64,000 nucleotides of DNA from an uncultured Flavobacteriaceae bacterium (GCA_947503005.1 CANNCA010000004.1:144324-208323); one strand, 5' to 3'. Shown: positions 1-22,816, counted from the stretch's first letter. The notes: generated from the sequence alone by a model not told the origin. Numbers and translations: made by a program.

Positions 1-685
1 ACTGGTACAGTACTTTAAAATGTACTTTCATTTTTTCCTTTGCCAGTTGAGGGTCCTGAGCTTTTATAGCTTCGAAAATATCTTTGTGCTCTTGAATGCC
101 TTTAAATGCCTGATCCTTGTCACAAACATGATATTTTTCGAAATTTGTTATTATTTCAGGTGTGATTATAAGCATGAACGTATCCATTGTACTGTTGCCG
201 CTTGCCTTAGCTATTGCTAAATGGAACAATAAATCTTCTTGAACCGCATCTTCTCCTCTGATTACTTTATCGCTATAAGCTTCTAATGCATACTGCATTT
301 GGTTCAGATCTTCTTTTGTTCTTCTCTGAGCTGCTAGACTTACGGTTTTTAATTCTAATAGAATCCTTGTCTCCACCAGCGATTTAAAATCAGGTTCTTC
401 CAGTCTTAGAATATCTTCAATCATACCGTTCATGGCCACTTGGCCGATGTCTGCAATGAAGGTTCCACTCTGGGGCTTTGATTTCAATATGCCATAAAAC
501 TCAAGCTTTTGGATGGCTTCCCGAACATTACTTCTACTCACTTCAAACTTTTCAGATAACATTCTTTCTGAAGGCAGTTTATCGCCAGGCTCAAGATTTT
601 TATAGTTGATTAAATCCCTAATCTTAGAGATGATACTGTTTTGAATTTCTTGATTTTCGTTTTTAGTGAGAATTTCTAATTTCAT
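1..685 (-). CDS. GntR/FadR-family transcriptional regulator (C-terminus runs off the window start; missing from the ORF track because no stop lies in the window)
   Basis: Manual translation of the minus strand from the ATG (complement of 683-685) gives MKLEILTKNENQEIQNSIISKIRDLINYKNLEPGDKLPSERMLSEKFEVSRSNVREAIQKLEFYGILKSKPQSGTFI... This is a canonical GntR winged HTH, followed by a helical FCD-like effector domain (...LLFHLAIAKASGN...). It is open for all 228 codons to position 1 and sits at the end of the alginate locus. Confidence 0.85.
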   Translation of the reverse strand, partial: MKLEILTKNENQEIQNSIISKIRDLINYKNLEPGDKLPSERMLSEKFEVSRSNVREAIQKLEFYGILKSKPQSGTFIADIGQVAMNGMIEDILRLEEPDFKSLVETRILLELKTVSLAAQRRTKEDLNQMQYALEAYSDKVIRGEDAVQEDLLFHLAIAKASGNSTMDTFMLIITPEIITNFEKYHVCDKDQAFKGIQEHKDIFEAIKAQDPQLAKEKMKVHFKVLYQ

Positions 686-10061: not shown

Positions 10062-10116
10062 TGGTTTTCCATTTTGGTTTTCCATACTGGTTAACCAATT
10101 TGGTTTACCAAATATA
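10062..10116 (-). promoter_or_regulatory. susC promoter: -7 box TATATTTG fused to four 13-bp-phased TGGTTnnCCA boxes
   Basis: Boxes: TGGTTTTCCA 10062-10071, TGGTTTTCCA 10075-10084, TGGTTAACCA 10088-10097, TGGTTTACCA 10101-10110. CAAATATA at 10109-10116 equals TATATTTG on the minus strand and matches the Bacteroidota TAnnTTTG -7 consensus. Confidence 0.65.
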
Positions 10117-10229: not shown

Positions 10230-10982
10230 CTATGAAAAAACAAGTCCCCCGTTGATATCAACGTTCGCACCTGTCATAAAAGATGTTTCGGAAGAAGCCA
10301 AACAAGCGACAGTATTCGCGATTTCTTCTGCTGTGCCTTGTCTACGAAGTGGCGTCATACCTTCTACTTTTTTGCGAACTTCATCTTTGGTAAAATCATC
10401 ATGAAATTTGGTAGCTATCATTCCTGGACACAAAGAATTTACCCGAATACCTTTCGGTCCCACTTCTTTTGCTAAACCTCTGGTAAAGGTCATTACTGCG
10501 CCTTTTGAAGTTGCGTATGCCAAAGACCCGCCACCACCGCCATCTCTACCCGCTTGGGAGGCAATGTTCACTATTGAACCCCCGGACCCCATATGTGGCA
10601 AAGCCGCCTTGGATACCAAAAATGTAGAGTTCAAGTTTAAGAACATAACCTTATTGAAGAAAGACTCATCCATTTCCGCGATTGTTTTCCTAGCCACTAA
10701 ACCTCCTGCATTGTTGACTACAATATCAATAGTGTCACCGAAAGCTGCTGTTGTTTCTTTAATCAAATTGTCAACATCCGATTTTTTGGTCATATCGCCT
10801 TTGACAATAATGGCAGTTCCACCTGTAGCTTCTATTTCTTTCAAGGTTTCTTTGGCATTTTCTTCGTTGTGAAAGTAATTGGCAACTACTTTTGCACCTT
10901 CCTTTGCCAATCTCGCACTTATCGCCCTTCCTATATCTCTTGTTCCACCAGTTACAATGGCCACTTTTCCTTTCAAATCCAT
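10230..10982 (-). CDS. SDR-family oxidoreductase (candidate DEH / 2-keto-3-deoxy sugar-acid reductase)
   Basis: 250 aa. It has a Rossmann motif (VAIVTGGTRDIGRAI), NNAG, and the catalytic YATSKGA. It lies in the alginate locus next to kdgF. Confidence 0.8.
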   Translation of the reverse strand: MDLKGKVAIVTGGTRDIGRAISARLAKEGAKVVANYFHNEENAKETLKEIEATGGTAIIVKGDMTKKSDVDNLIKETTAAFGDTIDIVVNNAGGLVARKTIAEMDESFFNKVMFLNLNSTFLVSKAALPHMGSGGSIVNIASQAGRDGGGGGSLAYATSKGAVMTFTRGLAKEVGPKGIRVNSLCPGMIATKFHDDFTKDEVRKKVEGMTPLRRQGTAEEIANTVACLASSETSFMTGANVDINGGLVFS

Positions 10983-11017
10983 AGATGTTGTTTTTAATTA
11001 ATTCATTATCGTCTTAA

Positions 11018-11782
11018 CTAAATATTGTATACGCCACCATTGATATCTAACGTTGCGCCAGTAATAAAGCCGTCATACTCTGATGCCAGATATAGGACCG
11101 CTCGAGCTACGTCATCTGCATTTCCGGCTCTTTGAATTGGAATGCCTGCAATTGTATTTTCTGCAGATTCTTGGGTTGTATGGGTGTTGTGGAATGAAGT
11201 GCCAAGAATTAGTCCGGGGGCCACGGCATTCACCCTTGTGCCTTGTGGACCCAACTCGGAAGCAAGTGCTCTTGTAAATGTTAAGATTGCTCCTTTACTG
11301 GTAGAATATACTAATGATCCAGGGTGACCCCCTTTACGTCCAGCAAGAGATGCCAAATTAACAATACTGCTATTGTCATTTTTTGCTAGATAAGGAGCTG
11401 CCGCTCGCGTCACGAACATCATGGAGGTAAGGTTGATGTCCATTACTCTGTGCCAGAATTCAGCCTCCATTTCGTTCAGCATTTTACGTGCAACAAGTGA
11501 ACCTGCATTGTTGATGAGTGTGTCTAAACCACCGAAAGCTTCTACTGCTTTTTCAACCAATGCGTTTGCATCAGCTTCTTTTGTTAAATCACCACCTATA
11601 GCAATCGCCTTTTGTCCCTTTCTAATTGCGTATTCCGTCAATTGGTCCGCCGTCTCGACGCTGGAAAAATAGTGGATGGCTACATTGGCTCCGCTATCAA
11701 TAAAGTGTTTGGTTATTGCTTCGCCAATGCCTTGCGCGCCTGCGGTGATGAGTACATTTTTTCCGGTCAGTTTACTTTTCAT
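11018..11782 (-). CDS. SDR-family oxidoreductase (second copy, divergent paralog)
   Basis: 254 aa. Motifs present: VLITAGAQGIGEAI, NNAG and YSTSKGA. Confidence 0.8.
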   Translation of the reverse strand: MKSKLTGKNVLITAGAQGIGEAITKHFIDSGANVAIHYFSSVETADQLTEYAIRKGQKAIAIGGDLTKEADANALVEKAVEAFGGLDTLINNAGSLVARKMLNEMEAEFWHRVMDINLTSMMFVTRAAAPYLAKNDNSSIVNLASLAGRKGGHPGSLVYSTSKGAILTFTRALASELGPQGTRVNAVAPGLILGTSFHNTHTTQESAENTIAGIPIQRAGNADDVARAVLYLASEYDGFITGATLDINGGVYNI

Positions 11783-14306: not shown

Positions 14307-14335
14307 TGGTTAACCAGTTTGGTTTACCAAAAATA
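14307..14335 (-). promoter_or_regulatory. Promoter/operator: -7 box TATTTTTG fused to TGGTAAACCA-N3-TGGTTAACCA
   Basis: TGGTTAACCA lies at 14307-14316 and TGGTTTACCA at 14320-14329. CAAAAATA at 14328-14335 equals TATTTTTG on the minus strand. The site is 24 bp upstream of the ATG at 14282. Confidence 0.65.
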
Positions 14336-14502: not shown

Positions 14503-16740
14503 CTATTCGTTGCGTATTAAATTCCAGACCTCTCCCGGCTTGAGTTCCTTTTCTGTCTTCTTTCCTTTAACATCTGTAATGGTCATAATGCTTTTCTCCG
14601 TTCCAAGCGCATGAATTTGAATTTTGTTGACGCAATGTTTTATGAAAAGATCCGTCTCCAAAGAAAGTTGAATGCTCAGTTCTTCAATTTTTAGGTTCTT
14701 TACGTCAAAGAAGTAAAAGCGATTATCCTTACTGATGCTTATTGAATTGTTACCAGCAGTTTCTCGGGCCGTATTATTTACATTCCATCCATAATAAGAG
14801 AATTCATCATCTGTTTCATCAATTCTATTGTCGTATCCCCGATAGGGGTAAATAAGTGTTATGAAACTAAAATTCTTTTGATTGATTTTTGAAACGATAC
14901 TCCAATTTTTCCCTCTTGCCCCTGAATTAACCACCGTATCTAATTTTGTTAACTGTAGAATATCATGACCACTCGCGTCTGGAGCCGTTGCTCGAATAAG
15001 ATAAGGGCCATTTTCATTGGTATAATGGCCCTGCCACACTTGTTTGTATTCATGTGGAGCTTCTGACGAGAAGTTATCTTTCACGATCCAAAAGTCATCC
15101 TTTACGAATATGACCTGTCTTGTATAGCTTACACCTACATTCTCAAATCCATCATGACTACCTATGAATAAATCAAAGTCTTCATTGGTTGACCATGCAA
15201 TGACTTCTGGGTTCGGCAAACTACCAAACTTGCCAAAACCACTTCCTCCTTTATTAGACGTCCATTGTTTACCTTGTAGCTCATCGTCAACTAGGGCGAC
15301 ATTTTTGACCTTTGAGTTTTTGAACAGTTCGAAATCCTTTAGCGAATAGCGTACTTGATAATTTGGTAAAATCACATGTCCATTTGCAATGGCCTGAACC
15401 CCTAGCATATCGCCATGTTGATGGTCAGGTTTCTCGTCGTCGAGGCCAGCGCTTACAATCATCATTTTGCTGTCAGGGTTCCAACCTTCACGCATTATAT
15501 AATAATGCGTGTCAGTAAAAGCGAGAGAGCCGTAAGAAGGTTTTATTCGTTGAATATTTTCAAGTAATTCAACCTGTGACTGATTTAGAAACCAGTACAT
15601 TCTTTCATCCACCTTGTCAGAAGCGAAATAGCCGAATTCAGGATCTTCAAAAAGTACATAACCCAAAGTCATCGCTCCGGAAATGTCATTTTTTTCTGCC
15701 CATGGTATTTCCGTATCATCTTGAAGTACGGGAGCGCTTTTATCAGGATAAGCAATTTTCACAAGCGTGGAGAACAGACCTTTAAGTTTGGTCGTCCAAT
15801 CATCGGCTAGCGGAATATGATTGACTTTGGCCAGTTGGTACACATAGTAGTAGTTATTTATGTCGCTCATGTGATAATGAACGGAACGTTCAAATTGAAA
15901 ACCGTCTTCATTGATTTCTTTATTTAAATGCTCATCAAGCCGCTGTATCGCCCTATTATACCACAAGTCAGTTCCTTCAAAATCACGAAAAAGAATGGAA
16001 AGCATCGCCAAGGCAGACATTCCTCTGGTCTGATGGTTACCAGGTTGAAACTTATCATTCCTATCATAAAGATGTTGGCCATGTTGTAAAAGCGTAGCTA
16101 TGGTTGTAAGCTGATCCTGATCGGAATATTCGGGCTCATTGAGAATCATGTTATGGATCCACAACCAATTAAGAATCCTGTAGCCCGACCTAAAAACCTC
16201 ATAAACCCCGTTACCATCTTCTATTCTTTCATATTGGCCGGATTCTAGCGCAGCATTAAGCGAACGGATCTGGTTTTCGAAATAGCTGATGTATTTTGGG
16301 TCTCTTTCCTCATTGAAATAAAGTAAAATAATATCTACCATCTTATGTTGCCTTGCCAAATGGCGCAGGGCATAGGCATTCACTTTTTGACCATTGAGAT
16401 AATTAAATGGCAAGATCCATTGTGTGGAATCAGTGTATTTTCCCAAATGATCCAAAGCTCTTTTTTTATGGACTTTCTCATTCTGATAGAGACCTTTGTA
16501 ATGTGGGAGTCTTTGGTCTAAGGTGTTATAATCATAGAAGAAGCGTTCAGAAAATCTTTCCCTGAAATATTTTGCCAGTTGTGCATCGGTTAGTTCCCCG
16601 TTTACTTCAATTTGCTCTATTACTTCATTTTTCAGAAAAGCTCCTAATTCATCATTTGTCAAAACTTTATTCGCGGGGATTTGCTGAGCAAAAAGACCAA
16701 GTGAAACGACTGAAACTAGATAGAAAACGTAAACTTTCAT
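14503..16740 (-). CDS. Heparinase II/III-like polysaccharide lyase (probably a PL17-type oligoalginate lyase; PL15-like not excluded)
   Basis: 745 aa with a signal peptide. It has an (alpha/alpha)-toroid-like N-half with an N-H pair (QPGNHQTRGMSA) and ERSVHYHM, then a beta-rich C-half. Its size and its position between PL6 and PL7 genes match flavobacterial alginate PULs. Confidence 0.6.
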   Translation of the reverse strand: MKVYVFYLVSVVSLGLFAQQIPANKVLTNDELGAFLKNEVIEQIEVNGELTDAQLAKYFRERFSERFFYDYNTLDQRLPHYKGLYQNEKVHKKRALDHLGKYTDSTQWILPFNYLNGQKVNAYALRHLARQHKMVDIILLYFNEERDPKYISYFENQIRSLNAALESGQYERIEDGNGVYEVFRSGYRILNWLWIHNMILNEPEYSDQDQLTTIATLLQHGQHLYDRNDKFQPGNHQTRGMSALAMLSILFRDFEGTDLWYNRAIQRLDEHLNKEINEDGFQFERSVHYHMSDINNYYYVYQLAKVNHIPLADDWTTKLKGLFSTLVKIAYPDKSAPVLQDDTEIPWAEKNDISGAMTLGYVLFEDPEFGYFASDKVDERMYWFLNQSQVELLENIQRIKPSYGSLAFTDTHYYIMREGWNPDSKMMIVSAGLDDEKPDHQHGDMLGVQAIANGHVILPNYQVRYSLKDFELFKNSKVKNVALVDDELQGKQWTSNKGGSGFGKFGSLPNPEVIAWSTNEDFDLFIGSHDGFENVGVSYTRQVIFVKDDFWIVKDNFSSEAPHEYKQVWQGHYTNENGPYLIRATAPDASGHDILQLTKLDTVVNSGARGKNWSIVSKINQKNFSFITLIYPYRGYDNRIDETDDEFSYYGWNVNNTARETAGNNSISISKDNRFYFFDVKNLKIEELSIQLSLETDLFIKHCVNKIQIHALGTEKSIMTITDVKGKKTEKELKPGEVWNLIRNE

Positions 16741-16751
16741 TTCGATTTAAG

Positions 16752-19070
16752 TTAGTACATCAGTTTCAACGGAAGATTTTCTTGAACGACCAAATCTCCT
16801 GAATTTTTCAATGCATTATCGGCATGCGAATTGTTTTTTGCCCCCCACAAACGAGCCACCATTTTTACACGATTGTTTGCAAAAGTGTTGCCGGAAATAT
16901 CAACATTGATAATACCATAGGTATTGAGTAAAATACCGTTTTCTTCCCTAGCACCACAATTGGTAAACGTACTGTTGGTTACGATGAGATTTCCACCGAC
17001 CGTAGATTCGTCGTAACCACCTCTATAGTAGTTAATGGTATTCTTTTCAACGCCATCAAATCGACAGTTGTCGATAAATACATTTTCCGCATTGTAATCA
17101 CCGCGGTCATCATCTTCTGCGGCCAATTCAATTCCGTTTGCGCAGTTTTGAATGCGCGTAGACTTGAATTTGACATATTCCGAAAAAGAGTGTTTATACC
17201 CTTTCAACACATAGTCAAAGTTTGATATTTCAGAATTATTGACTTCTAAATTGTAAAGACTTGACATGTGCTCTTTCAAGCTGGCGAAGGCGTAATTTTC
17301 TCCGTTTCCTTCAAGTGCCAGCGATATCAAACTAAGCTCGCCCTTTGGATTCATTTCAAACGCAGGCGTTTTGGCCTCACCACTAAACGTAATGAGAGCT
17401 TTCTTTCCGTCAACAGCAGAACGTATGCTAAGTTTTTTATTAATCCTAAGTGATGATTTCAAGTCATATCGGTCGCTTGTCAAGCGTATCGTATCACCAC
17501 TGTTAGCTTCCTCAACTACCTTACGCAATTCACTTACGGAAGCTGCTGAATGCGTTTTTGCCTCGTTTTTCGTTTCACTGAAATCGTACCAATCCGGACC
17601 GTATTGTGACAGGTCCATAAGGTTTGGCTTATCGCCTTTGACACCTGAGATAGCTCCGACCTTATTATTATTCTCTCGTGAATTACCGAATAAATCTTCT
17701 GTAATCTGGTCAAACTCAAAACCGTTGTAGAGAGCAACATCCGGCAGGTCATTGGTTGGGATAAAAATGTCTTCCTCAAGTTTAGCAATTGAGAAATCCT
17801 CTTGCTTAAAGACGGAATCATGTTTGAACGAGACGCCTTGATTGTTTATCAAATTACTTTTAAACGAAATGCCATCCAATGAATCATGGGCTACAATGGG
17901 ATGCTTATCCGCCTTCACGTTGTAAATAAGATTGTTCGCAACAATAGTACGGATAGGTCTTTCAGATCGGATTTCTGAAGCAGGCAACACATCCTTTTGG
18001 TCTACGTTTGATCCCACTCCAAATTGCAAGGGGGAAGTACAATTGACCCAAAAGTTATGCGCCACTACAACATCTGTAACTTGTATATATCGATTGAGCG
18101 GCGATTTGGGAATACCGTTCATTACGGCAAGCGGACTTCTAAAAACCTTTCCTTTTAGGTTATAGAAATAGTTGTTTGTTACCCAATGACCTGTACCTAT
18201 CAACCGTACACCCCCAATTTGTTCTGAATTTGTATCTCCGATGAAATAATTCCCATCTACGATACAATAGTTTCCGTGTCTTGTTACTAAGGAACCCTCG
18301 CTCTTGTAAAAGACATTATTTCGAAACTCATTGAAATTCGTTTTGCTTGAAATAACTTCTACTTCCCCATTACATCGATCAAAAAAATTATTTGCCACTA
18401 GGGTGTAGCTGGGCGCCATTGAAGTAAAACTATTCCCGATTTGGATGGTCTCGGCACTAGGTCCTCCTTTGGGAGGCCTCGACCCAAAATAGTTATTCGT
18501 AATCTTATGGTAATTTTTGATGCTTTTATTTCCGGCTAGGTCAACCCGAATGGTGGGACCTCTATTTGATTTACCCGCTATGTAACATTGATTAAGCTCG
18601 TTATAGCGCCCTTTAAACTGTATCCATAAATCAGTCTCGTTTCTTTGTGGCTTGTTGTAGTCTAGAATTACACTGTTGGTGACCTTGGAATGGTTGGCGA
18701 CCGTATCTTGATTAATAGCAAACTCGATTACAGCTCGCGTAGGAGATGCCCCATCCGTAAAGTATAACCCGTTAACTACCAGGTATTCACCTCCAAGTTT
18801 TATATCGGATTTTCCTTTTATAATTACCTTGCCAGGAGTTTCCGCACGTAAGGTAATGGGTTGATTTTCATTTCCATACCCGACAAATCGAATTTGTACG
18901 TCATTCCAATCTCCATTGGCCATGACGATATCATCTCCAGGACTTGCTTTCTCTATCGCTTCGGATAATTCAGTGCTATCTTTTACATAGATTTCATTTG
19001 AAATGGAATTTTCAGCACAAGAAAATAGCAGGAGCACTATGCAGACTAATAATAGATGTTTTTTTATCAT
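16752..19070 (-). CDS. PL6-family alginate lyase (two-domain, right-handed beta-helix)
   Basis: 772 aa with a lipoprotein-like signal (LLFSCAEN). PL6-type blocks are present: SPGDDIVMANGDWNDVQIRF, AETIQIGNS, and NFFDRCNGEVEVISSKTNFNEFRNNVFYKSEGSLVTRHGNYCIVDGNYFIG. A second beta-helix-like C-terminal half follows. Confidence 0.8.
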   Translation of the reverse strand: MIKKHLLLVCIVLLLFSCAENSISNEIYVKDSTELSEAIEKASPGDDIVMANGDWNDVQIRFVGYGNENQPITLRAETPGKVIIKGKSDIKLGGEYLVVNGLYFTDGASPTRAVIEFAINQDTVANHSKVTNSVILDYNKPQRNETDLWIQFKGRYNELNQCYIAGKSNRGPTIRVDLAGNKSIKNYHKITNNYFGSRPPKGGPSAETIQIGNSFTSMAPSYTLVANNFFDRCNGEVEVISSKTNFNEFRNNVFYKSEGSLVTRHGNYCIVDGNYFIGDTNSEQIGGVRLIGTGHWVTNNYFYNLKGKVFRSPLAVMNGIPKSPLNRYIQVTDVVVAHNFWVNCTSPLQFGVGSNVDQKDVLPASEIRSERPIRTIVANNLIYNVKADKHPIVAHDSLDGISFKSNLINNQGVSFKHDSVFKQEDFSIAKLEEDIFIPTNDLPDVALYNGFEFDQITEDLFGNSRENNNKVGAISGVKGDKPNLMDLSQYGPDWYDFSETKNEAKTHSAASVSELRKVVEEANSGDTIRLTSDRYDLKSSLRINKKLSIRSAVDGKKALITFSGEAKTPAFEMNPKGELSLISLALEGNGENYAFASLKEHMSSLYNLEVNNSEISNFDYVLKGYKHSFSEYVKFKSTRIQNCANGIELAAEDDDRGDYNAENVFIDNCRFDGVEKNTINYYRGGYDESTVGGNLIVTNSTFTNCGAREENGILLNTYGIINVDISGNTFANNRVKMVARLWGAKNNSHADNALKNSGDLVVQENLPLKLMY

Positions 19071-19119: not shown

Positions 19120-19158
19120 TGGTTAACCAGTTTGGTTTACCAAAAATACATATATTTG
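19120..19158. promoter_or_regulatory. Divergent promoter region: double-box operator flanked by a minus-strand -7 box (TATTTTTG) and a plus-strand -7 box (TATATTTG)
   Basis: TGGTTAACCA lies at 19120-19129 and TGGTTTACCA at 19133-19142. CAAAAATA at 19141-19148 is the minus-strand -7 box. TATATTTG at 19151-19158 is the plus-strand -7 box. A TTTG at 19131-19134 inside the operator could serve as the plus-strand -33 element. Confidence 0.6.
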
Positions 19159-19217
19159 TAAGACACACAAGTTTTTAACACAATTTCTACTGACAAAACA
19201 TAAAACCGCATTCGATT

Positions 19218-20183
19218 ATGAAAAATGAGAAAAAGAAGCTAACAAGAAGAGACTTCACAAAGTTATCGGCAGCTGCACTAGGTAGTGTTCCACTAATGGG
19301 GTTTAGCAATTCTCTTCTACAACCGATGTCACAACCGAAAGAAGGCATCCAGGTAAATCTGTTCTCTAAACATTTGCAATTCCTTGGTTATAATGAGATG
19401 TCAGAGGCGGCGGCAGAAATTGGGTTTGATGGCCTTGACCTGACCGTAAGGCCCAAGGGTCATGTTTTGCCGGAACGCGCTGTTGAAGATTTACCGAAGG
19501 CGGTTGCCGCAATGAAGAAATACGGTCTATTAACAACAATGATGACCACTAATATTATCGACGCGAACGATCCTCAAAGCAAACAGGTTCTTGAAACGGC
19601 AAGCGGATTAGGATTAACGCATTACCGTACGGGTTGGTTGACTTATCCTGAGGAAAAAACAATTCCTGAAAGTATCGAAGACCATGCCCAAAAATTAGCA
19701 GCTTTGGAAACACTGAACAAAAGACTAGGATTATACGGCGGATATCAAAATCATGCAGGAAATCATGTGGGTGCCCCAATTTGGGATATTCCACAAATTT
19801 TAAAAAACACATCTTCCCTTCACATGGGATGTCAATATGATATACGACATGCGATGGTTGAGGGAGGTGGTAGTTGGCAACTTGGTCTTCGCCTAGTTCA
19901 TTCCTATATCAACAGTATAGATATCAAAGATTTTAAGTGGGGACAAAAAGATGGAAGATGGCAACCGATAAACGTCCCGTTGGGAGAAGGTATGGTCGAT
20001 TTCGATTTATATTTTAAATTGCTTAAAAAATATAATATCAATGTGCCGGTATCACTGCACTTGGAATATGATTTGGGAGGAGCAGAACATGGTGATTCCA
20101 AAATCACGATTGATAAAAAAGAGGTTTTTGCACAAATGAAAAAGGACTTGTCCTTTTTAAGAAAAGCGTGGCAAGAAGCGTAA
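19218..20183 (+). CDS. Tat-exported xylose-isomerase-like TIM-barrel protein (annotated class: sugar phosphate isomerase/epimerase)
   Basis: 321 aa. It has a twin-arginine signal (LTRRDFTKLSAAALGS). The remainder resembles AP_endonuc_2 / xylose-isomerase-like TIM barrels (...GFDGLDLTVRP..., ...YQNHAG..., ...LHLEYD...). Confidence 0.7.
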   Translation: MKNEKKKLTRRDFTKLSAAALGSVPLMGFSNSLLQPMSQPKEGIQVNLFSKHLQFLGYNEMSEAAAEIGFDGLDLTVRPKGHVLPERAVEDLPKAVAAMKKYGLLTTMMTTNIIDANDPQSKQVLETASGLGLTHYRTGWLTYPEEKTIPESIEDHAQKLAALETLNKRLGLYGGYQNHAGNHVGAPIWDIPQILKNTSSLHMGCQYDIRHAMVEGGGSWQLGLRLVHSYINSIDIKDFKWGQKDGRWQPINVPLGEGMVDFDLYFKLLKKYNINVPVSLHLEYDLGGAEHGDSKITIDKKEVFAQMKKDLSFLRKAWQEA

Positions 20184-20211
20184 TAATTTTAATCAATATG
20201 GCAAGGATATC

Positions 20212-20931
20212 ATGACCGAATTATCAAAATCTACAAAAGAAAAATTAAAAAAAGTAAGTACGGCGACCATCGCCACCTGTCTTTTTAAACGAGGTTTGAA
20301 GCATCAATTTATACAAGATGTAAAACCCTTAAAATTAGGCAAACCAACTATGGTCGGTGAAGCCTATACCTTGCGCTATATTCCCGCACGTGAGGATTTG
20401 AATCCCATTACAGTTTTTAAAGACCCGAAACATTTACAACGAGTTGCCGTTGAGAAATGTCCCGAAGGGGCAGTCTTAGTCATCGATAGTCGGAAAGATG
20501 CAAGAGCAGCTTCAGCAGGTTCTATTTTAGCTACAAGATTAATGGTTAGAGGTGTGGCCGGAATTGTAACCGATGGTGGCTTCCGAGATTCTGCGGAAAT
20601 AGCTGATTTAAATATGCAATCATACCATAATAGGCCATCGGCTCCCACGAATTTGACTTTACATCAAGCTATCGCTATTAATGAACCAATAGGATGTGGC
20701 GATGTTGCAGTTTTTCCGGGAGATATTATTGTTGGAGATGACGATGGGATTATGGTTATTCCATCGAAAATTGCAGATGAGGTAGCAGATGAATGTTTAC
20801 AAATGACCTTGTTCGAAGAATTTGTGATGGAACAGGTTCAAGATGGACAAGAGATTATTGGGCTTTATCCGCTAACTGATGAAAAGATTCGCTTGGAGTT
20901 TGAAGATTGGACGAAAAATCGGGTAGGCTAA
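20212..20931 (+). CDS. RraA-like protein / class II 4-hydroxy-2-oxoacid aldolase family
   Basis: 239 aa with no signal peptide. It has the RraA/HMG-CHA-aldolase-type core (GSILATRLMVRGVAGIVTDGGFRD ... GDIIVGDDDGIMVIP). Confidence 0.7.
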   Translation: MTELSKSTKEKLKKVSTATIATCLFKRGLKHQFIQDVKPLKLGKPTMVGEAYTLRYIPAREDLNPITVFKDPKHLQRVAVEKCPEGAVLVIDSRKDARAASAGSILATRLMVRGVAGIVTDGGFRDSAEIADLNMQSYHNRPSAPTNLTLHQAIAINEPIGCGDVAVFPGDIIVGDDDGIMVIPSKIADEVADECLQMTLFEEFVMEQVQDGQEIIGLYPLTDEKIRLEFEDWTKNRVG

Positions 20932-21010
20932 GGTCATTTCTTGGTGGAACTCGCCAAACTCCTTAAAAAAGACTAATTTGTTGAGCGTTAAAAATGAAGA
21001 ACCGCGCTCT

Positions 21011-22816
21011 ATGTCTAAACTGGGAATACTTTACCATTTTGATTTACCTGGAGCAATAAAAGCAAAAAATCTCCCTGCCATATTATTTTGCGCTTGGCTC
21101 TTGATGATTTTTGCTAGTTGTAACTCAAAGGACGGAAAAAGTAAGGAGCACAATATCACCAAAGCTAACAAATATGATACAGCTGAACTTACTATCCAAA
21201 GGGGCATGGAACTCTTCAATCAGCATTGTGCCAGTTGCCACAATTTCAATGAGAATGCAATCGGCCCAAATCTAGCGGGGGTGACCTCACATGTTTCCAA
21301 AGATTGGCTGGTAAGTTTTATTAAAAACTCGAAACAAAGTATTGAAAGTGGAGACGAAAGGGCGGTAGCACTTTATAAGAAATATAATGTTTATATGCCC
21401 GCTTTTGAAATGCTGCGAAAGAAAGAATTAGAAGATATTTTAGGGTTTATACATAAAATCTCTGAAGCAGAAAAGCGGAGCAAAAACAATAGGCCTGGAG
21501 GGATTCTAAATCCGATACCGGACAAAATCCCCGATTCCGACTTGACGCTTGTCATTGAAGAGTTCTTGACGGTTCCTCCGAGTTCTGAGACTGCTCCTAA
21601 GGCCCGTATAAATAAACTTTCCGCAGTAAAGACACCAAATGGTGAACGTTTGTTCATAGCTGACCTGCGTGGAAAATTATACGAAGTCATCGATACTACT
21701 ACGCACACGTTTTTAGACCTTAAAGTGGAAATATCCAATTTTATTGATAACCCAGGTTGGGGTACGGGATTGGGCAGTTTTGACTTTCATCCTGAATTCG
21801 ATACAAACGGACTTCTTTATACTACCCATACGGAGCCATCAAGAACTTCGATTGCAGATTTTGAAATCCATGACAGCATTCCCACAATGTTGCAATGGGT
21901 ATTGACCGAATGGCAAATGGACGAAGCATCCTCGCTGAAATTCTCAGGACAAAAAAGGGAAATTCTTCGTGCAGACATGGTACGTGGTTCTCACGGTTTT
22001 CAAGAAGTCACTTTCAATCCAACGGCGAAAAAGGGTGATTCAGATTATGGACTTCTGTATTTATGCATAGGAGATGGTGGCGGTACCCTCAGAGGCTATT
22101 CTTTTCTTTGTGGTAGTCCTGAAAAAATATGGGGAAGTATCATTCGAATTGACCCTTCTGGCAGCAATAGTGTGAACGGTCAATATGGCATTCCTGCGGA
22201 TAACCCTTTCGTCAATGACCCGGATAAACTTGGCGAGATCTGGAGCTACGGGTTTAGAAATCCACATCGAATTTCTTGGGGTGAAAATGGTTCGAAAAAA
22301 ATGCTTGCTACAAATATTGGGCAACACAGTTTAGAAGAAGTTAATCTTGTAAAAAAGGGAGCGAATTATGGTTGGCCGAAGCGGGAGGGTACATTTTTAT
22401 ACGATGTAGATGCGAATACCGAGATTGTCTATCCTTTACCCGAAGATGATTCGGGGTTTGCCTATCCGGTTATTCAATTTGACCATGATGAAGGTAATGC
22501 CGTTTCAGGTGGATACGTATATGCAGGCAATAGAATTCCGCTACTTCAGGATAAATATATTTTTGGGGATATTCCTAGAGGAACCCTTTTCTTTTCAGAG
22601 ATATCAGAAATAGTTGATGGAAAACAAGCTCCCATTTTTAAAATAGGTTTGATGTTAAATGGAAAGTCGACGACTTTTGCCGAAATAGCAGGCGACCAGC
22701 GAGTTGACCTGCGTTTCGGGAAAAACGGATCCGGAGAACTGTTCATTTTTACTAAGAGCAACGGAAAAGTTTACAAAGTAATCGATTGTAAAAAACTGTT
22801 CAAGCCTTCTAAATAA
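21011..22816 (+). CDS. Cytochrome c domain fused to a PQQ-dependent (soluble glucose/sorbosone-type) sugar dehydrogenase, lipoprotein
   Basis: It has a lipobox (LLMIFASCNSKDG) and a haem c motif (CASCHNF). GSDH-type beta-propeller blocks are present: FHPEFDTNGLLY, LCIGDGGG, GSIIRIDPSG, IPADNPF, YGFRNPHRISW, GANYGWP. The ORF opens at a TTG at 20978. The ATG at 21011 was chosen, so the start is uncertain. Confidence 0.8.
   Translation: MSKLGILYHFDLPGAIKAKNLPAILFCAWLLMIFASCNSKDGKSKEHNITKANKYDTAELTIQRGMELFNQHCASCHNFNENAIGPNLAGVTSHVSKDWLVSFIKNSKQSIESGDERAVALYKKYNVYMPAFEMLRKKELEDILGFIHKISEAEKRSKNNRPGGILNPIPDKIPDSDLTLVIEEFLTVPPSSETAPKARINKLSAVKTPNGERLFIADLRGKLYEVIDTTTHTFLDLKVEISNFIDNPGWGTGLGSFDFHPEFDTNGLLYTTHTEPSRTSIADFEIHDSIPTMLQWVLTEWQMDEASSLKFSGQKREILRADMVRGSHGFQEVTFNPTAKKGDSDYGLLYLCIGDGGGTLRGYSFLCGSPEKIWGSIIRIDPSGSNSVNGQYGIPADNPFVNDPDKLGEIWSYGFRNPHRISWGENGSKKMLATNIGQHSLEEVNLVKKGANYGWPKREGTFLYDVDANTEIVYPLPEDDSGFAYPVIQFDHDEGNAVSGGYVYAGNRIPLLQDKYIFGDIPRGTLFFSEISEIVDGKQAPIFKIGLMLNGKSTTFAEIAGDQRVDLRFGKNGSGELFIFTKSNGKVYKVIDCKKLFKPSK

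Follow-up and report, generated by a model that had tools for sequence, protein, structure and literature searches.

The 64,000-nt stretch of DNA analysed here (the window, from an uncultured Flavobacteriaceae bacterium, GCA_947503005.1 CANNCA010000004.1:144324-208323, with all coordinates counted from its start) carries a minus-strand locus for alginate utilisation in its left 19 kb, as recognised by Pfam matches and translation, and three plus-strand genes that follow the divergent PL6 alginate lyase gene at the edge of this locus. The three genes encode a xylose-isomerase-like TIM barrel with a twin-arginine translocation (Tat) signal, an RraA-like protein, and a lipoprotein in which a cytochrome c domain is joined to a GSDH beta-propeller. 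Pfam confirms these domains (TRRDFTK TIM barrel, RraA-like, CxxCH plus GSDH), which were named in a preliminary description that treated the genes as a trio sharing one alginate operator. Our comparisons indicate that the conserved, repressor-controlled unit very probably comprises two genes, those for the TIM barrel and for an orthologue of FlDet, an enzyme of the oxidative alginate route of Flavobacterium sp. UMI-01, and that the cytochrome c-GSDH gene is an unrelated neighbour.

A genome scan with the RraA-like protein gave 70 loci, about 60 of them from Flavobacteriaceae at 69-87% identity. The RraA-like gene adjoins lyase or KdgF genes in 51 of the 54 flavobacterial loci whose upstream flank reaches 5 kb or more, and the TIM-barrel gene stands directly upstream of it in 36 loci; two additional genomes, reached through homologues of the TIM barrel, also have the TIM-RraA pair next to alginate genes. 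Conservation of the genes downstream of the RraA-like gene stops at genus level, and a GSDH gene takes that place in only one sampled species locus (L036). On this cross-genome synteny, the shared operator and the link to alginate hold for the TIM-barrel and RraA-like genes and fail for the cytochrome c-GSDH gene. Moreover, in 54 of the 62 loci with enough sequence, a pair of operators of the kind bound by the repressor AusR precedes the (TIM)-FlDet unit by no more than 350 nt, and in 48 of those 54 a TAnnTTTG box follows exactly 31 nt after the start of the operator-promoter module. Judged from sequence, about 50 Flavobacteriaceae species have a conserved AusR-type operator and promoter in front of an FlDet gene that is next to alginate lyase genes.

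We infer an arrangement in which repressor binding, co-transcription, the enzyme activity of the orthologue and the role of the TIM barrel are all predictions. The 147-bp control region between the PL6 gene and the gene starting at 19218 would hold two overlapping divergent promoters with one pair of AusR-type repressor sites in common. Because this pair overlaps the PL6 -7 box and covers the plus-strand -33 region, one bound repressor would silence both directions, and unsaturated alginate oligosaccharides would release it, by analogy with AusR in Zobellia. The plus-strand transcript would carry the TIM barrel and then the FlDet orthologue. [quoted passage not shown]

Enzymatic demonstration of this route is confined to Flavobacterium sp. 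UMI-01; the conserved AusR-type control suggests that flavobacterial alginate use regularly includes the oxidative branch, induced by the substrate. Two points did not turn up in the searchable literature: the AusR-type control of fldet orthologues, which may explain why FlDet is expressed on alginate only, and the Tat-signal TIM barrel as their usual partner. The TIM barrel is singled out as a target for biochemistry, being conserved, exported and uncharacterised, and the cytochrome c-PQQ-type (pyrroloquinoline quinone) dehydrogenase can be dropped from the list of candidates for most lineages. The observations of the preliminary description are confirmed in part, and its interpretation is partly supported.

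Position of the cytochrome c-GSDH gene

The preliminary description assigned to the GSDH protein the periplasmic oxidation of DEH or of reducing-end uronates, with electrons passing to the respiratory chain and all three genes forming one alginate-induced operon; in an updated form of this model, the GSDH protein would supply KDGR to FlDet. We consider this model very unlikely, even though the diacid expected from such an oxidation is indeed a substrate of FlDet. In the characterised system, DEH oxidation is already explained by an NAD+-dependent SDR, the oxidant in UMI-01 being FlRed, and the GSDH gene is not conserved with alginate loci. The cytochrome c-GSDH fusion is common in Bacteroidota (57-76% identity), and in all sampled species genomes other than L036 it is not found within 10 kb of the FlDet gene. 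The orthologues in Maribacter algarum and M. cobaltidurans have the same right-hand neighbours as the gene in the window (QueE-like radical SAM, methyltransferase, CxxCxxCC, FA hydroxylase, NamZ and FtsX, with DUF7079 and DUF2059 genes also present in M. algarum) and no alginate genes nearby; upstream, a HerA-type block stands in place of the alginate genes. A different contig of M. algarum holds the TIM-FlDet-PL6 genes. In addition, no TIM, RraA or lyase gene is seen near the GSDH gene in the Tunicatimonas locus or in any of 69 metagenome loci (69/69).

The interval 20932-21010, between the RraA-like and GSDH genes, contains no AusR operator, and a promoter-like TAATTTG box at 20974-20980 is conserved before the GSDH gene whatever gene is upstream, as in M. 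algarum, where that gene is different. Although the third open reading frame had been given a TTG start at 20978, translation probably begins at the ATG at 21011, because homologues are 580-600 aa long and the promoter-like box overlaps that TTG. On the side of the trio, a terminator scan and RNA folding between the RraA-like and GSDH genes gave nothing significant (z -0.28). Read-through into the GSDH gene is therefore possible and, since no terminator was detected, the conserved box is the sole argument for separate transcription. The three-gene order also recurs in L036, L076 and L077, and the right flank of the GSDH gene in L077 differs from that in the window, which hints that this gene moved together with the alginate unit. 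A fragment 36% identical to the RraA-like protein lies at 7969-8313 in L077, between the GSDH gene and the HerA block, and may be the scar of the rearrangement that changed this flank.

Taken across genomes, the GSDH gene appears as a widespread Bacteroidota backbone gene, with the alginate island as its neighbour in a Maribacter-like clade only. A functional link to the alginate unit in that clade is possible but unlikely; as a further possibility, the GSDH protein could have been recruited there, where the three genes adjoin, to make KDGR in the periplasm. Its GSDH beta-propeller, CxxCH cytochrome c domain and lipoprotein-type signal resemble the soluble PQQ aldose/sorbosone dehydrogenases (YliI/Asd, sGDH). 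Its best PDB sequence matches, however, include HHIP, a non-PQQ propeller, its TIGR03606 score is only 40.6 against a cut-off of 434, and PQQ use is putative. The other proposal of the preliminary description, that this dehydrogenase and the TIM barrel act as a keto-glycoside pair, finds no support because the two genes are not conserved together. No oxidoreductase consistently accompanies the TIM barrel in the loci examined, which were not scanned systematically for one.

Overlapping divergent promoters and their operator

The AusR regulon of Zobellia galactanivorans (Dudek et al. 2020, NAR 48:7786, PMC7641319) is marked by operators of the form TKGTN2-3ACMA, arranged in pairs 3 bases apart that overlap a -7 box TAnnTTTG. 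The regulator is encoded in the polysaccharide utilisation locus (PUL), its own promoter carries a single site, and unsaturated alginate oligosaccharides release it (PMC7641319). The window is alike in having paired TKGTN2-3ACMA operators, 3 bases apart, that overlap TAnnTTTG, and a FadR-subfamily GntR regulator gene that sits in the alginate locus with a single operator of its own. Because its layout matches the published AusR operators, the operator at 19120 is an element of a known kind. Its place between the minus-strand PL6 gene and the plus-strand -7 box at 19151-19158, as given in the preliminary description, can be read directly from the DNA.

Operators of this type lie upstream of four genes in the window, namely those for PL6, SusC, the double PL7 and the regulator, and the motif TGGTNNACCA is found 8 times against 0.72 expected, a count reached in 0 of 100 shuffles. 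The pairs at 10088, 14307 and 19120 have identical spacing and orientation, and each runs directly into CAAAnnTA, the minus-strand form of the TAnnTTTG -7 box; the same arrangement of operator and -7 box was found in 114 modules across the RraA-like loci. In layout, the operator at 19120 agrees with the other minus-strand promoters. An intact operator TGGTTAACCA (716-725), in the same orientation as the pairs, stands upstream of the regulator gene and is followed after 3 bases by a degenerate copy TGGTTTGTTA (716-738 together), which resembles the decayed second site of PausR in Zobellia, and this single operator adjoins an imperfect -7 box only. The regulator has NCBIfam matches of FadR-subfamily type, such as LldR, NanR and PdhR, and orthologues at 65-88% identity are present in other alginate loci. 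An isolated operator-like palindrome, TGGTTGACCA, occurs at 15186-15195 within the PL17-like coding sequence.

Only 2 bp separate the two divergent -7 boxes between the PL6 and TIM-barrel genes, which together make up a near-palindrome, CAAAAATA-ca-TATATTTG (19141-19158); RNA polymerase on one promoter may therefore exclude it from the other. The plus-strand -33 region falls within the operator at 19120-19142, an overlap pointed out in the preliminary description, and the promoter concerned proves to be conserved across loci. A CAAa is conserved at module positions +48 to +51, also in modules without a divergent gene, and is probably the minus-strand -33 element. A column-wise profile of 47 distinct sequences is near-invariant from the operator through TATATTTGT, and again at CAAA. 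By these comparisons, the plus-strand promoter is conserved and overlaps the PL6 promoter.

A different explanation would have the operator serve the PL6 promoter only, with the plus-strand TATATTTG as part of the spacer and the TIM-FlDet unit expressed independently of AusR. It draws on the fact that the orientation of the operator and its overlap with the minus-strand -7 box are as at promoters without a divergent gene, and on the homologous position upstream of PL7, which reads TTTATTTG, yet no plus-strand gene follows. We nevertheless give this explanation very little credence, because the exact TAnnTTTG box on the plus strand is nearly confined to modules that face TIM or RraA genes (49/56, versus 4/55 of the other modules, which face nothing), and because it is missing from PL6 promoters without a divergent TIM or RraA gene (L019, L022 and L041). 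Also against it is the detection of FlDet only on alginate in UMI-01 (PMC8563752).

Moreover, the module accompanies the RraA-like gene into contexts without lyases. In Maribacter thermophilus, Zobellia laminariae and Z. barbeyronii, this gene retains the whole module opposite non-lyase genes: the divergent partner is a GntR-MFS-SDR-PfkB operon (MFS, major facilitator superfamily) in M. thermophilus, and a gene for a 166-aa gluconokinase-like (SKI-type) protein in the two Zobellia species. Beyond Zobellia, two more loci have this gluconokinase-like gene opposite TIM-FlDet; its positions are 8408-9010 in L024, 7404-7904 in L075 and 3596-4096 in L077. The only extra AusR site in the Z. galactanivorans genome was assigned to gntK1 (zgal_2637) (PMC7641319), and the region between TIM-FlDet and the gluconokinase-like gene, as seen in Z. 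laminariae and Z. barbeyronii, probably corresponds to it. If so, the published site probably controls TIM-FlDet as well. Unlike the gntK1 site, the window module at 19120 faces the PL6 gene.

The RraA-like protein as an FlDet orthologue

The oxidative branch that the preliminary description took to be uncharacterised had already been published for Flavobacterium sp. UMI-01 (Nishiyama et al. 2021, Commun Biol 4:1254, PMC8563752). There, the SDR FlRed carries out the NAD+-dependent oxidation of DEH to KDGR; purified FlDet, an RraA-family protein of 237 residues, forms alpha-ketoglutarate semialdehyde from KDGR by dehydration and decarboxylation, and the aldehyde dehydrogenase (ALDH) FlDeg converts this semialdehyde to alpha-ketoglutarate (PMC8563752). 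FlDet is inactive on DEHU, 2-keto-3-deoxygluconate (KDG), its 6-phosphate (KDPG) and 4-hydroxy-2-oxoglutarate; it was detected in alginate-grown cells only, and its gene adjoins the exo-lyase gene flalex (PMC8563752). The authors called its regulation unclear and listed homologues in Zobellia and Maribacter (PMC8563752). An oxidative DEH branch through a keto-deoxy-glucarate diacid thus exists, as the preliminary description had foreseen, and its expectation that the RraA-like protein consumes that diacid agrees with the action of FlDet on KDGR (PMC8563752).

The gene at 20212-20931 is, by sequence, the FlDet orthologue, encoding a predicted KDGR dehydratase/decarboxylase. The comparison with FlDet was made on the published peptides only, namely the N-terminal 19 residues, of which 15 are identical (15/19), and the antibody peptide LVMDSRKDPRAASA, which is identical at 12 of 14 positions. 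Like FlDet, the window protein belongs to the RraA family, with the long C-terminal extension, and has a similar length (239 aa, versus 237 for FlDet); in NCBIfam it reaches 341 bits for NF006093, where the cut-off is 208. With its counterpart in the Flavobacterium locus L060 it shares 71% identity; the gene order of that locus, PL6 / RraA-like / ALDH, is the one described for flalex-fldet-fldeg, and there, as in the window, the FlDet-like gene is divergent from a PL6-type lyase gene. In contrast to the flalex-fldet-fldeg order, no gene for an alpha-ketoglutarate semialdehyde dehydrogenase adjoins the orthologue in the window. The window also departs from the main text of the UMI-01 paper in that a Tat-signal TIM-barrel gene precedes the FlDet-like gene, here and in 36 other loci, and, whereas that paper left regulation open, the window shows an AusR-type operator together with a conserved promoter.

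The protein shares the RraA-like fold and an Arg-Asp pair with RraA and with the HMG/CHA aldolase LigK/ProA (HMG, 4-hydroxy-4-methyl-2-oxoglutarate; CHA, 4-carboxy-4-hydroxy-2-oxoadipate). In an alignment with PDB 3noj, the catalytic Arg123 and Asp124 have Arg125 and Asp126 as their counterparts, and Ser104 takes the position of Asp102. The orthologue thus differs from the aldolase in one second-shell acidic residue, and FlDet has another reaction and another substrate. Ser104 is found in 131 of 135 aligned sequences, the window protein included, and Glu129 in 133 of the 135. The best PDB sequence match is 5x15, a 270-residue 'putative transferase' that we take to be S. coelicolor RraAS2. Two assignments were tried with NCBIfam and rejected, LigK aldolase (NF006731, 92.6 against a cut-off of 179; TIGR02798, 74.3 against 304.5) and RraA RNase E regulator (NF006875, 50 against 136). 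We give next to no credence to the proposal that the protein is a class II pyruvate aldolase of the HMG/CHA type, as in the preliminary description, or an RNase E regulator, since the fold, the Arg-Asp pair and the 5x15 match that favour it are set against scores below both cut-offs, the serine at the Asp102 position, and an FlDet that dehydrates and decarboxylates KDGR and is inactive on all four other compounds named above, so that the aldolase idea does not hold for the orthologue that has been characterised (PMC8563752).

Several observations weigh against a repressor-controlled two-gene unit that serves the oxidative route, among them the lack of a detectable terminator before the GSDH gene and the recurring three-gene order discussed above. 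The contrast in box frequency between the two classes of module (Fisher p 5e-19) ignores shared ancestry. Two Flavobacterium sequences, from L060 and L065, have Asp104 together with Ser or Asn at position 129, against Ser104/Glu129 in the window and in most other orthologues from outside Flavobacterium; because these residues differ, KDGR activity is assumed for the window orthologue. Finally, homologues from other loci found no match for KdgK, MFS, PFK, gluconokinase or ALDH in the window, and no KdgA/Eda-type aldolase is present among the window reading frames scanned against Pfam.

Since none were found in 64 kb, the genes for monomer catabolism presumably lie elsewhere in the genome, and this may also be true of an FlDeg-type alpha-ketoglutarate semialdehyde dehydrogenase gene; an ALDH gene is adjacent to the FlDet-like gene only in L060 and L034. 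Either of the two tandem SDRs in the window might take the FlRed-type reductase/oxidase step on DEH from which KDGR would come; one of the two could mainly reduce DEH and the other mainly oxidise it. Neither clearly matches the published FlRed peptide.

The TIM barrel and other features of the window

The TIM barrel scores 69.6 bits against a cut-off of 31.1 for PF01261, and R10, R11 and F13 of its Tat motif are invariant in 29 homologues. AlphaFold predicts a (beta/alpha)8 barrel (pLDDT 80.8) whose signal region is disordered; for this model, Foldseek returns generic relatives only, at TM 0.6-0.7 (SCO6571, ketose 3-epimerases, UlaE, YcjR and AtHYD), the matches to ketose 3-epimerases and UlaE having a probability of 1.0. 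There was no sequence match in the PDB and no NCBIfam match below E 1e-4, and the protein falls into no characterised subfamily (epimerase, isomerase, dehydratase or keto-glycoside lyase), the best NCBIfam score being 21 bits against a cut-off of 272.

The PL6 gene is the usual neighbour of the TIM-barrel gene in other genomes, and where the latter stands apart from the FlDet gene it is still beside PL6, either divergent or co-directional (L015, L040, L042, L044 and L045). PL6 may therefore be its closest functional partner, and we infer that the TIM barrel acts in the periplasm in a role tied to the PL6 product. A more specific suggestion, offered tentatively and with less than even confidence, is that it might be a missing AusR-controlled enzyme of periplasmic alginate catabolism that converts the PL6 product (unsaturated monouronate/DEH) before uptake. 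The searchable literature on xylose-isomerase-like TIM barrels or RraA-like proteins in alginate PULs gave only Nishiyama et al. 2021.

Table 1. Coordinates of the genes and control elements discussed in the text
Feature	Position	Strand	Details
AusR-like GntR/FadR-type repressor gene	2-685	-	Cut by window start; translation and NCBIfam FadR-subfamily-type matches
AusR-type operator pair upstream of SusC	10088-10110	.	
Two tandem SDR genes	10230-11782	-	Pfam adh_short_C2
AusR-type operator pair upstream of double PL7 gene	14307-14329	.	
PL6 alginate lyase	16752-19070	-	Pfam Chondroitinase_B, E 4e-207; divergent, common control region with gene 19218-20183
AusR-type operator pair	19120-19142	.	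TGGTTAACCA-gtt-TGGTTTACCA, read directly
-7 box of PL6 promoter	19141-19148	-	TATTTTTG on minus strand, CAAAAATA on plus strand; overlaps second operator
-7 box of plus-strand TIM-FlDet promoter	19151-19158	+	TATATTTG; fixed offset +31 from module start
Probable -33 element (TTG) of PL6 promoter	19168-19171	-	19 nt upstream of its -7 box
Tat-signal xylose-isomerase-like TIM barrel	19218-20183	+	Pfam PF01261 (AP_endonuc_2), E 4e-19; motif TRRDFTK
RraA-like protein, FlDet orthologue (predicted)	20212-20931	+	Pfam PF03737, E 3e-31
Cytochrome c + GSDH beta-propeller lipoprotein	21011-22816	+	PF00034, E 2e-10; PF07995, E 7e-28; CASCH

From the window start, the minus-strand locus runs through the FadR-type GntR regulator, two PL7 lyases, an unknown protein, a PKD/CBM protein, SusD, SusC, the two SDRs and a KdgF cupin to the double PL7, the PL17-like lyase and the PL6 lyase. 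Annotation of open reading frames extends to 52607, and tRNA and Rfam scans of the window found no RNA genes. Farther to the right, the stretch 42250-63343 begins with a pair of neighbouring sulfatase genes, after which comes a cluster for polysaccharide biosynthesis (GT4 and GT1 glycosyltransferases, a flippase and a Wzy-like protein).

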